1,252 nt of DNA from Escherichia coli. GTDB lineage: Bacteria > Pseudomonadota > Gammaproteobacteria > Enterobacterales > Enterobacteriaceae. Made by a program: the position numbers and the translations under genes. The notes below the pieces were generated by a model. The model saw only the letters and a program-made list of their open reading frames with translations. It was not told the DNA's origin and searched no databases. The stretch is taken from NCBI RefSeq assembly GCF_003334405.1, contig NZ_QOWM01000046.1; one strand, written 5' to 3'. This document shows positions 1-1,252 of this stretch, in pieces. Positions within the stretch are counted from its first letter, which is position 1. Each line of letters begins with the position of its first letter.

Positions 1-98
1 CACATGCTGAGGGTGCTGTCCGGGTGCAGCTCCGGGTCGGGCAGGCGGTTACCTGCCGGGTCTGTGGCATACGGGATATCAATGCCCAGGTTACATAT
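1..98 (-). CDS. 5' portion of a probable orphan Rhs core fragment (YD-repeat-encoding), start-less, continues beyond window start
   Basis: Minus-strand translation from about 98 toward 1 gives ...ICNLGIDIPYATDPAGNRLPDPELHPDSTLSM..., containing a YxxDxxGxRL match to the YD-repeat consensus. GC jumps from about 26% to about 66% (59/90 by hand count over 1..90) at about position 90, matching Rhs core composition. Frame is open from the immunity stop (123..125) to the window edge with no ATG; orphan rhs fragments downstream of immunity genes are a known feature of Rhs loci. Confidence 0.5.
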   Translation of the reverse strand, partial: MCNLGIDIPYATDPAGNRLPDPELHPDSTLSM

Positions 99-122
99 AA
101 TAATAAGAGCAATTAACTTAAT

Positions 123-449
123 TTATTTGTTTATAATGCGCTTACTTAATACAAACCATTGAATATACCCTCCTGACAGAAAATAAAGCCATATTATTAT
201 CGCCATAATATACTTACTATCAATCCTTACGCCAATAATGTCTGATACAGCCCCTATAAATATTAGAGCAATAAAGAATACTATGCCTGTTGGAAAACAT
301 ATTACCATCATTCCATAAGACATGAGACTAATTAACTCGCTCACATCACGAGTGGAGTCTAATAGTGAAAGTCTATGCATGGAAAAGAATAGTATTAAAA
401 GCGATAAAGCCAGCCATATAGCTCTGAATAAAAAAATAATATATTTCAT
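123..449 (-). CDS. ybfB: Small integral membrane protein (108 aa, about 3 TM helices); presumptive cognate immunity protein for the Rhs CT toxin
   Basis: ORF 449..123 with stop TAA at 125..123. ATG 449..447 overlaps the toxin stop (TAATG). GGAG Shine-Dalgarno 7 nt upstream (complement of 457..460). Three hydrophobic stretches: approx aa 4-24 (LFRAIWLALSLLILFF), 45-68 (GMMVICFPTGIVFFIALIFIGAV) and 81-101 (IMAIIIWLYFLSGGYIQWFVL). Position directly downstream of the rhs CT is the canonical immunity slot. AT-rich (26% GC by hand count over 91..190). Symbol is tentative, from recollection of the E. coli rhsC-ybfB arrangement. Confidence 0.78.
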   Translation of the reverse strand: MKYIIFLFRAIWLALSLLILFFSMHRLSLLDSTRDVSELISLMSYGMMVICFPTGIVFFIALIFIGAVSDIIGVRIDSKYIMAIIIWLYFLSGGYIQWFVLSKRIINK

Positions 450-1252
450 TACATCACTCCGGTGAATACAAATCTAATAAAACGTCCAATGTTATTTCCG
501 GAGCACTTCATCTTACATGTTTCTAAAGAATCATTAGACCAGTCTTGGCAGTTTTTAAATAGCCCTAAATTTATAGGTGTGAATATATCAGGCAATACAG
601 AATAACGCGGCCTTACCTCTTTAAACTTCCCTTTTAAACAGTTCTCCACACAACTATTATCGGTTTCAACGAGGTCACAACGGCCAGCAGCTTCTTTTGT
701 ATCATTACTTGCTTTACCTGGCCCCCATAGACCATCTCCTTTTGATTCTCCCCGTTGGTCTTGGCCACCACAAGTATAGTCCCCTTTACCATCTGGGACA
801 CAAAGATATTGATGATAGAACGGATTCCCCCATATATCTGGACCGCTTCTTTCACCAGTTCCGCCCATTGAATGCAGTGGCTTAATGCATTTTAGTGTTT
901 CTAATCCTAATGGATCTATATTTGAGATCGGATTCAACGGATACTGATAAAAATTCCATCCCCCTTTCAGCCCAATCGGATCCTGAGTGATATATCGCCC
1001 CTGCAGCGGGTCATAATAGCGGTGGCGGTTGTAATACAGGCCGGACTCCTCATCATACTGCTGCCCCGGCAGGCGGATAAGCTGCTGCAGCTGATGCGGG
1101 TTCTCTTCATTCAGCAGGTTGCCCCATTCATCGTATTCTGCGCACCATTCTGTTGTCCCTTCCTTGCTGATAAGGGCCAGCGGCAGGCCGCGATGGTCGC
1201 AGTGGTACAGGTGGATTTTTCGCGCCGGCGTGTACACCGGGTCCATCTGGTT
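449..1252 (-). CDS. rhsC: Rhs family YD-repeat polymorphic toxin, C-terminal portion (5'-partial; gene continues beyond window end). Contains end of conserved Rhs core through DPLGL (916..902) followed by variable C-terminal toxin tip (901..452), stop TAA 451..449
   Basis: Minus-strand ORF is open to the window edge (codons 1252..1247 read N-Q before the tracked ATG at 1246..1244, so that Met is internal). Translation [24 protein letters not shown]...[45 protein letters not shown] is the hallmark C-terminal end of the Enterobacterial Rhs core, terminating in the PxxxxDPxGL demarcation motif. About 58% GC across 1081..1200 (hand count) versus AT-rich sequence after the motif. Paralog symbol is tentative (E. 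coli rhsA/B/C share this core); chosen because of the 108-aa membrane ORF plus orphan fragment downstream. Confidence 0.88.
452..901 (-). other. Variable C-terminal toxin (CT) domain of the Rhs protein, about 150 aa, Cys-rich and Gly-rich, function unknown
   Basis: Sequence immediately after DPLGL: [24 protein letters not shown]...[18 protein letters not shown]. Nine Cys in 150 aa including two CxxxC pairs (CVENC, CKMKC). Sharp drop in GC relative to the core. Position after DPxGL is where Rhs toxins carry their polymorphic effector domain (established architecture). Confidence 0.8.
457..460 (-). promoter_or_regulatory. Shine-Dalgarno (GGAG) for the immunity gene, embedded in the last codons of the toxin CT
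   Basis: Minus strand reads ...CACCGGAGTGATGTAATG...; GGAG sits 7 nt before the ATG at 449..447, good spacing for translation initiation and coupling. Confidence 0.55.

Follow-up and report, generated by a model that had tools for sequence, protein, structure and literature searches.

Does the fall in GC content beside the DPLGL motif of this Escherichia coli locus mark the place where a toxin and immunity cassette was joined to a conserved core, and does the compositional break coincide with the join? A preliminary description of the 1,252-nt stretch of DNA analysed here (the window) had answered yes to both. E. coli chromosomes were found to match the whole window, the best record (strain 2018-11-1BCC) being 99.9% identical and two K-12-type records 99.2% identical, and at least 80% of the window is present in 2537 of 5426 complete genomes. 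In annotated records, the minus strand of the window contains the 3' end of rhsC, ybfB, and the start of the ybfO orphan; the name rhsC is taken from the annotation of strains that are 99.9% identical. The locus is flanked by kdpFAB/ybfA on one side and by ybgA/phrB on the other, and ybfC and ISAs1 remnants are also found in it. A long open reading frame (449..1246, minus strand) is open to the window edge, and the ybfB reading frame occupies 123..449 on the same strand, with no read-through ambiguity. The window is very probably the core/tip junction of E. coli RhsC, carrying a cassette that has a separate history and is exchanged as a unit by C-terminal displacement.

The features of the window are all encoded on the minus strand, apart from a spacer to which no strand was assigned. 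The last 112 codons of the conserved rhsC core, up to the residue before DPLGL, lie at 917..1252 and were identified from NCBIfam matches, identity to paralogues, and annotation as the end of an RHS-repeat-associated core domain (RHS_core NF041261, E 1.6e-72, model positions 1146-1261 of 1261; TIGR03696, E 7.9e-26). The PxxxxDPxGL demarcation motif follows at 902..931, as indicated by the translation, homology to paralogues, and the published description of the motif (PMC3150448), and DPLGL itself is encoded at 916..902, where the preliminary description had placed it. The C-terminal tip of RhsC, a polymorphic toxin domain of 150 codons with 41.6% GC and a GC3 of 0.31, extends over 452..901 with its stop codon at 451..449. 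The next gene, ybfB (123..449), encodes a predicted multi-pass inner-membrane protein of 108 aa and is presumed to be the immunity gene, based on the list of open reading frames, the YbfB annotation, and the hydrophobic segments of the product. An AT-rich spacer at 78..122 (18% GC at 101-122) separates ybfB from the orphan core and forms the 3' edge of the cassette. Homology, a GC change point, and annotation identify positions 1..77 as the GC-rich start of a downstream orphan Rhs core fragment, which continues beyond the window edge to its own tip and to ybfC. This fragment is the ybfO pseudogene, annotated as an N-terminally truncated 'RHS repeat-associated core domain', and beginning at window position 77 its core is 97.3% identical over 1045 nt to rhsC nt 2695-3738, so that the orphan module downstream of ybfB consists of a partial core, its own tip, and ybfC. 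The YD/RHS repeats of RhsC sit outside the 1252-nt window and were read from the 99.9%-identical locus, in which a Pfam analysis of RhsC residues 1-1190 revealed 15 RHS_repeat domain matches (10 with E <= 0.001), together with RHS and DUF6531. The locus thus has the parts of an Rhs element: repeats, a core ending in PxxxxDPxGL, a variable tip, a co-varying small gene, a GC contrast, and an orphan module.

The end of core homology was determined by comparing the last 351 core nt of the window with seven other core ends from five genomes. These paralogous Rhs cores have 94-98% nucleotide identity to the window over this length, and near-perfect identity runs through '...CCGTTGAATCCG' (PLNP, window position 929). 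The next 27 nt, encoding xxxxDPxGL, are variable and travel with the tip: VQYIDSMGL is common to two ybfC-type tips, and VINVDPQGL to two yibG-type tips. The rhsC/ybfB type and the dsORF-f3 type have these 27 nt in common, down to the final base of the Leu codon (902), but show no relationship from 901 onwards. Among the paralogues, which represent six tip types, no alignable sequence was found past the motif. The limit of core homology therefore lies within 929..902, inside the sequence encoding PxxxxDPxGL.

The compositional break was found to be equally clear, and to be placed elsewhere. The core stretch at 981-1252 has 57.7% GC, in agreement with the approximately 58% reported previously for the sequence upstream of the motif, and ybfB (123-449) has 31.5%. 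A single-split likelihood scan gained 21.5 log units, whereas 500 shuffled sequences gained 2.6 on average and never more than 8.9, so the GC break is real and far beyond chance. Within the rhsC core portion (917..1252) the sequence is GC-rich down to approximately 1000 and AT-richer beyond. The best change point is 955 when all bases are used and 998 for GC3, which is 13-32 codons ahead of the motif end. The 2-log-unit support interval of the GC3 split, derived from the likelihood profiles and shuffles, defines a compositional transition zone at 923..1004 (minus strand), while the all-base profile is much wider (586-997). Forcing the split to 901 costs 6.9 log units. The last 64 nt of the core before the motif already have only 40.6% GC and the motif itself 33%, and 60-nt segments on either side of the motif show the reverse of the expected polarity, with 33% GC on the core side (901-960) and 45% on the tip side (841-900). 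Tip GC is also uneven, at 47% for 640-880 and 35% for 452-640. AT-richness spans ybfB and stops abruptly at approximately 75-77 (GC change point 75), within 2 nt of the start of orphan homology at 77. The strong break continuing across the immunity gene, as first described, is thus upheld, whereas its placement exactly at DPLGL, or within a few codons after it, is not; the accompanying figure of roughly 30% GC holds for ybfB and for third positions (0.31) but not for the tip as a whole.

The same arrangement was seen in eight cassettes of six types, in which core GC3 is 0.74-0.76, tip GC3 0.24-0.34, and immunity gene GC3 0.23-0.40. In all eight, the terminal 32 core codons have a GC3 of 0.38-0.50, compared with 0.74-0.76 directly upstream, and in a Buttiauxella homologue GC likewise declines before the motif. 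The composition step therefore lies 25-70 nt, or 25-100 nt by the broadest estimate, further into the core than the homology limit, and 40-100 nt ahead of the motif, in sequence that is conserved among paralogues. All paralogues examined have the step on the core side of the motif, so a recombination limit read from composition alone is 25-100 nt out of place. This mismatch is not predicted by a simple graft at the motif, and counts against one. Decayed core-end stubs in two loci have 45-47% GC, compared with 50% for the corresponding part of the window, which is suggestive but not decisive evidence that core-end stubs travelling with cassettes are the source of the early drop in GC.

This core was seen with six tip types, and each of them is followed by a different gene: ybfB, ybfC, dsORF-f3, a gene for a 136-aa hypothetical protein, yibA, and yibG. 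The ybfC pair is an orphan in K-12-type loci and belongs to the main gene in O157:H7; similarly, the yibG pair is an orphan in one genome and part of the main gene in another. In O157:H7 strain NE92, the same site between kdp-ybfA and ybgA-phrB contains a full-length core fused to a ybfC-type tip, and the rhsC tip and ybfB are absent from that site, although the difference between O157 and K-12 could be due to a deletion instead of an insertion. With six tip/immunity pairs on cores that are approximately 95% identical, and a different pair at the same site in O157:H7, the proposal of a toxin-immunity cassette on a conserved core, renewed by C-terminal displacement, is borne out. The cross-strain alignment that had been suggested as a check shows a conserved core with tip and immunity gene replaced together; neither a uniform composition across the boundary nor tips that fail to co-vary with the immunity gene were observed.

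Genome counts point to the same linkage. A full tip (at least 80% covered) was found in 2545 genomes, ybfB in 2659, and the whole window in 2537. Of the 2545 full-tip genomes, 2537 cover the whole window to at least 80%, a threshold that can be reached only with the tip and most of ybfB present; approximately 120 genomes have ybfB without a full tip. Those exceptions to the tip/ybfB linkage that were examined are insertion-sequence events. In strain NT1F31, IS1 took out ybfB and the orphan core and left rhsC intact, and in the metJ-yiiX Rhs locus of strain MLI106K1, ISAs1 cut the tip to 35 codons while ybfB persists as an orphan. Across six strains, the tip and ybfB are 99.8-100% identical, kdpA differs by at most 2%, and the rhsC core by at most 3.8%. 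Beyond E. coli, the tip family has few members, which are fused to the ends of Rhs cores in Salmonella, Buttiauxella, Shigella, and a small number of metagenome sequences. A YbfB homologue was located directly after the tip homologue in all three loci examined (Buttiauxella, Salmonella, and a metagenome contig), with identities of 71, 66, and 42% for the tips (42% on the metagenome contig) and 35, 39, and 33% for the YbfB homologues. On the metagenome contig (approximately 44% GC), the coordinates of tip and immunity gene also adjoin, and the module of stub, tip, and immunity gene lies next to integrase and primase genes. A repeat search revealed only short AT-rich chance repeats; the cassette edges have no inverted repeats.

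These results can be accommodated in a single explanation. The GC-rich part of the window is the end of a YD-repeat shell of approximately 1240 residues, a core of which each genome carries several nearly identical copies. The AT-rich block, from approximately 78 to approximately 929 if delimited by homology, or to approximately 955-1000 if delimited by composition, is the cassette of RhsC-CT and ybfB, with a history separate from that of the core. Cassettes would be exchanged whole when homologous recombination takes place in the core sequence that the locus shares with modules of partial core, tip, and immunity gene, either incoming or already resident as orphans; the previous tip (ybfO/ybfC) would have been left as an orphan just downstream. 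Composition, homology limits, modular replacement, tip-immunity linkage, and conserved residues were seen directly, whereas the direction and source of transfer, like autocleavage, toxicity, immunity, and the route of delivery, are inferred. Recombination in the shared core results in homology that ends at the sequence encoding PxxxxDPxGL. The earlier placing of recombination at the demarcation motif is accordingly right about where homology ends, but recombination itself must occur within the shared core.

Other origins of the GC contrast have to be weighed against this exchange of cassettes. The change might be a by-product of amino-acid composition, and so uninformative on history, if a shell rich in Gly, Arg, and Pro simply gives way to a tip and membrane protein rich in Lys, Asn, and Ile; the ybfB product is indeed hydrophobic and rich in Ile, Phe, and Leu, and the core ends in codons for N, F, Y, and K. 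However, the shift is concentrated at third positions: GC3 is 0.68 across the 112 codons of the core and 0.31 across the 150 of the tip, while GC1 declines modestly from 0.61 to 0.49 and GC2 moves in the opposite direction, from 0.35 to 0.45. A drop in GC3 while GC2 rises indicates a shift at silent sites and not an amino-acid effect, and the break also coincides with the loss of homology and with unit-wise replacement. Position-specific GC thus largely rules out an artefact of amino-acid composition as the cause, and the probability left to this reading is negligible. Alternatively, the contrast could arise mainly from the core, as a compositionally foreign piece from a GC-rich source, with the tip and immunity gene not especially unusual. 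The entire rhsC core has 61.5% GC and a GC3 of 0.72, compared with 41.3% and 0.31 for the AT-rich core extension; the flanking kdp/ybfA and ybgA/phrB DNA has 51.6-51.7% GC and the 14-kb locus 50.5%, and in earlier work the core is regarded as rich in GC by E. coli standards (PMC2935791). Measured against these flanks the junction joins two atypical pieces, the cassette deviating about equally the other way (41.6% GC in the tip, 31.5% in ybfB), and we consider it unlikely that the core accounts for most of the contrast.

A third account concerns how the low GC of the cassette came to be, and has a better claim, falling somewhat short of even odds. Here AT-richness would be maintained, candidate causes being H-NS-type silencing, low toxin expression, or equilibrium in a mobile pool, and would not be the leftover of a recent import; the break would then reflect differing constraints and gene pools, and exchange would still occur. 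Tip GC is 41.6, 41.3, and 42.1% in E. coli, Buttiauxella, and Salmonella, respectively, and immunity gene GC is 31.5, 28.9, and 28.8%; the metagenome contig gives 38.6% and 29.9%. As GC is nearly constant across the four hosts even though the immunity proteins are only 33-39% identical, low GC appears to be a long-standing property of the cassette, and may stem from a mobile pool or from selection. In Buttiauxella and Salmonella, where the tips are 66-71% and the immunity proteins 35-39% identical to those of E. coli, divergence without drift towards the host value of approximately 51% argues against simple incomplete amelioration. The same picture could nevertheless come from frequent re-import, and maintenance leaves both the end of homology at the motif and the unit-wise replacement unexplained, so that it modifies the exchange of cassettes by C-terminal displacement and does not replace it. 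Because low GC has been kept despite deep divergence, composition is no evidence of a recent arrival from an AT-rich donor; it supports a different history for the cassette, not a recent one.

The core end contains both QDPIGL and IDPLGL, with the two Asp residues 22 residues apart. In TseI, the catalytic residues D1407 and D1429 are likewise 22 apart, and cleavage occurs between L1433 and S1434, directly after DPLGL (PMC7170923). On the basis of sequence and of this spacing, the Asp encoded at 980..982 (minus strand) is predicted to be the first catalytic residue of an internal aspartyl autoprotease. By analogy with TseI, we infer that the Asp pair (QDPIGL...IDPLGL) would cut RhsC after the Leu encoded at 904..902, freeing the 150-residue tip inside the shell. 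The core end also aligns to the solved Rhs/TcC structures 8h8a, 8qjc, 7q97, and 4o9x (E 1e-14 to 7e-6). Once delivered to a neighbouring cell, the tip would act as a toxin at the envelope or membrane, from which YbfB would protect the producer. As to the route of delivery, no vgrG, hcp, or T6SS genes are present within 6 kb either side of rhsC, and the N-terminus of RhsC in the Pfam scan contains DUF6531 and no recognised PAAR match.

No match to the tip was found in Pfam, even at E 10, nor in NCBIfam or PADLOC, and Pfam, NCBIfam, and PADLOC scans of YbfB were also empty. A PDB sequence search with a tip-only profile gave only a chance match (Tctex1, E 0.66); earlier PDB matches of the tip alignment were rejected, as all of them fell on the Rhs core stub that some of its rows include. 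Alignment of the tip family with E. coli YiiX using hhalign gave a probability of 0.2%, and hence no support. H10, H30, and C118 are invariant in the tip-family alignment (10 sequences), as are eight other Cys residues, and a CGGQD motif is present. In an AlphaFold model of the tip (pLDDT 71, pTM 0.68), a five-strand sheet is followed by helices, and C118 starts the helix at 118-133. The structural matches of this model were YiiX (7.1), PLAAT4 of the LRAT family (6.4), Aichivirus 2A (6.2), TseH (5.8), PPPDE (5.3), and CLN5 (5.3), and a Foldseek analysis recovered this fold from the Rhs tips of numerous other bacteria and then, weakly, PPPDE and PLAAT. RhsC-CT is probably an envelope-acting, disulfide-rich permuted NlpC/P60-like cysteine hydrolase, an assignment drawn from this medium-confidence model; sequence-based membership tests did not support it.

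YbfB has three to four strongly hydrophobic segments, at approximately 1-31, 39-78, and 83-101. The ATG of ybfB overlaps the rhsC stop codon (TAATG at 451..447), which suggests coupled translation, and YbfB is presumed to be the cognate immunity protein of the RhsC tip. A promoter and terminator scan gave the same counts as shuffled sequences. No experimental study of the RhsC-CT/YbfB pair was found in the literature searched; the supplements of PMC12994826 gave no match to rhsC, ybfB, or the tip motif, and RhsC and YbfB are not mentioned in the available part of Zhang et al. 2012. Tentatively, and with the predicted fold as a guide, RhsC-CT/YbfB, which is present in approximately half of complete E. 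coli genomes including K-12, might represent an uncharacterised envelope toxin family: a Cys-rich permuted NlpC/P60-type hydrolase that would act on membrane lipids or lipid-linked envelope molecules and be neutralised in the membrane by an immunity protein of three to four helices. As a separate matter, the constant low GC of the pair might be selected or be a property of the pool.

The core/tip junction is real, ordinary, and already described, K-12 rhsC being among the founding cases of the principle. It shows how contact-dependent weapons are renewed, with a constant delivery shell and a swappable cassette of toxin and immunity genes. What is added here is modest, namely the finding that the composition step falls inside the conserved core ahead of the motif, and a prediction, open to testing, of the fold and catalytic residues of the RhsC tip, for which no family has been assigned.

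Several known systems can be compared with this locus. With the self-cleaving T6SS Rhs effectors and TcC subunits (TseI, TccC3, and P. protegens RhsA) the locus shares an alignable core end, and with TseI the spacing of the two Asp residues and the DPLGL context; unlike those effectors, RhsC has no T6SS genes within 6 kb and carries DUF6531 with no PAAR match, and its cleavage is at the stage of a prediction. In the model, RhsC-CT resembles the permuted NlpC/P60 lipid-targeting T6SS toxins, namely Tox-Act1 of Salmonella (paired with Imm-Act1) and TseH of Vibrio cholerae, its best matches being YiiX, PLAAT4, and TseH. Tox-Act1 is a permuted NlpC/P60 phospholipase that acts in the periplasm, its immunity protein Imm-Act1 has two TM helices, and YiiX, PLAAT4 (LRAT), and TseH are clades of one permuted group (PMC12994826). 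As modelled, RhsC-CT would resemble this group in having its His before its Cys and a helix that begins at the Cys, and YbfB is predicted to be embedded in the membrane as is Imm-Act1; Tox-Act1 would be the closest functional analogue of RhsC-CT in the literature if the modelled fold is correct. The GC-rich core, the AT-rich core extension (work of the Hill laboratory as summarised there), and the model of C-terminal displacement were set out by Jackson et al. 2009 (PMC2935791), and the PxxxxDPxGL demarcation motif and orphan toxin/immunity modules by Poole et al. 2011 (PMC3150448). The present locus agrees with these descriptions in its conserved core, its exchangeable tip past the motif, the trough of low GC beyond the gene, and displaced tips with partial core downstream. 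It has been stated that E. coli clade I rhs loci are generally without dissociated tips downstream (Jackson et al., PMC2935791), but this rhsC locus does carry one (ybfO/ybfC). The nearest comparison is the E. coli K-12 RhsC element itself (rhsC-ybfB-ybfO-ybfC with ISAs1/H-rpt remnants, of the RhsA-B-C-F subfamily), which is the same locus with the same gene order; nothing material differs from it, and the finer placement of the composition step and the predicted fold of the tip are additions to what was described there.

The 3' end of rhsC and the start of ybfB, the presumed immunity gene, share one base in a TAATG on the minus strand (window 447-451), and because the rhsC stop codon overlaps the ybfB start codon in this way, the sequence suggests that the two genes are translationally coupled. 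Toxin and immunity ORFs also adjoin in a homologue from a metagenome contig (L012, position 3528). In the segments around the window from six strains (L001, L002 and L014-L017), the tip together with ybfB is 99.8-100% identical, whereas divergence in the same strains reaches 2% in kdpA and 3.8% in the rhsC core; the cassette is therefore far less diverse than its surroundings.

At some loci one of the two genes is missing or damaged. In strain NT1F31 (L009, NZ_CP045190.1, 2288-7192), an rhsC of intact length is followed directly by IS1, and both ybfB and the orphan core are absent, so that the toxin tip has been kept without its presumed immunity gene. In strain MLI106K1 (L008, NZ_CP116931.1, 3593-5159), ybfB persists as an orphan at another Rhs locus, metJ-yiiX, where the RhsC tip is reduced to a 35-codon remnant cut by an ISAs1 element, and where the orphan core that comes after ybfB bears the dsORF-f3 tip in place of the ybfC tip. 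An O157:H16 strain (L015, 7416-11609) has an intact and identical ybfB next to an rhsC that is annotated as a pseudogene and contains an internal stop.

Downstream of ybfB, the GC-rich left end of the window (1-77) is the start of the ybfO orphan Rhs core fragment, which is 97.3% identical to rhsC nt 2695-3738. Homology starts at window position 77 and GC content steps at about position 75, so at this edge the composition changes no more than 2 nt from the point where homology begins, in contrast to the DPLGL side. There, GC3 has already fallen to 0.38-0.50 in the last 30 or so codons of the conserved core (window 917-1000) across all eight paralogous cassettes, and the core end of a Buttiauxella homologue is likewise AT-richer ahead of its tip. 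One possible cause is that core-end stubs travel with the cassettes. Decayed stubs of about 200 nt lie between cassettes in L007 (1339-1547) and in MLI106K1 (5673-5850); with 75-78% identity to the window's core end, stop codons and a terminal DPLGI, they appear to be remnants of tips that were displaced earlier. The metagenome contig (JGI 3300001750, 1-3866) carries a core stub of 54 residues together with a homologue of the tip, at 42% identity, and a YbfB-like gene. They adjoin tyrosine integrase and primase genes in DNA of approximately 44% GC, with nearly uniform composition across the stub/tip boundary; this set is possibly a cassette on a mobile element.

The RhsC tip itself (window 452-901) lacks a family assignment and belongs to a small family in which H10, H30 and C118 are invariant, together with a CGGQD motif and eight further cysteines. 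Its predicted fold resembles those of permuted NlpC/P60 enzymes, namely YiiX, PLAAT4, TseH and PPPDE.
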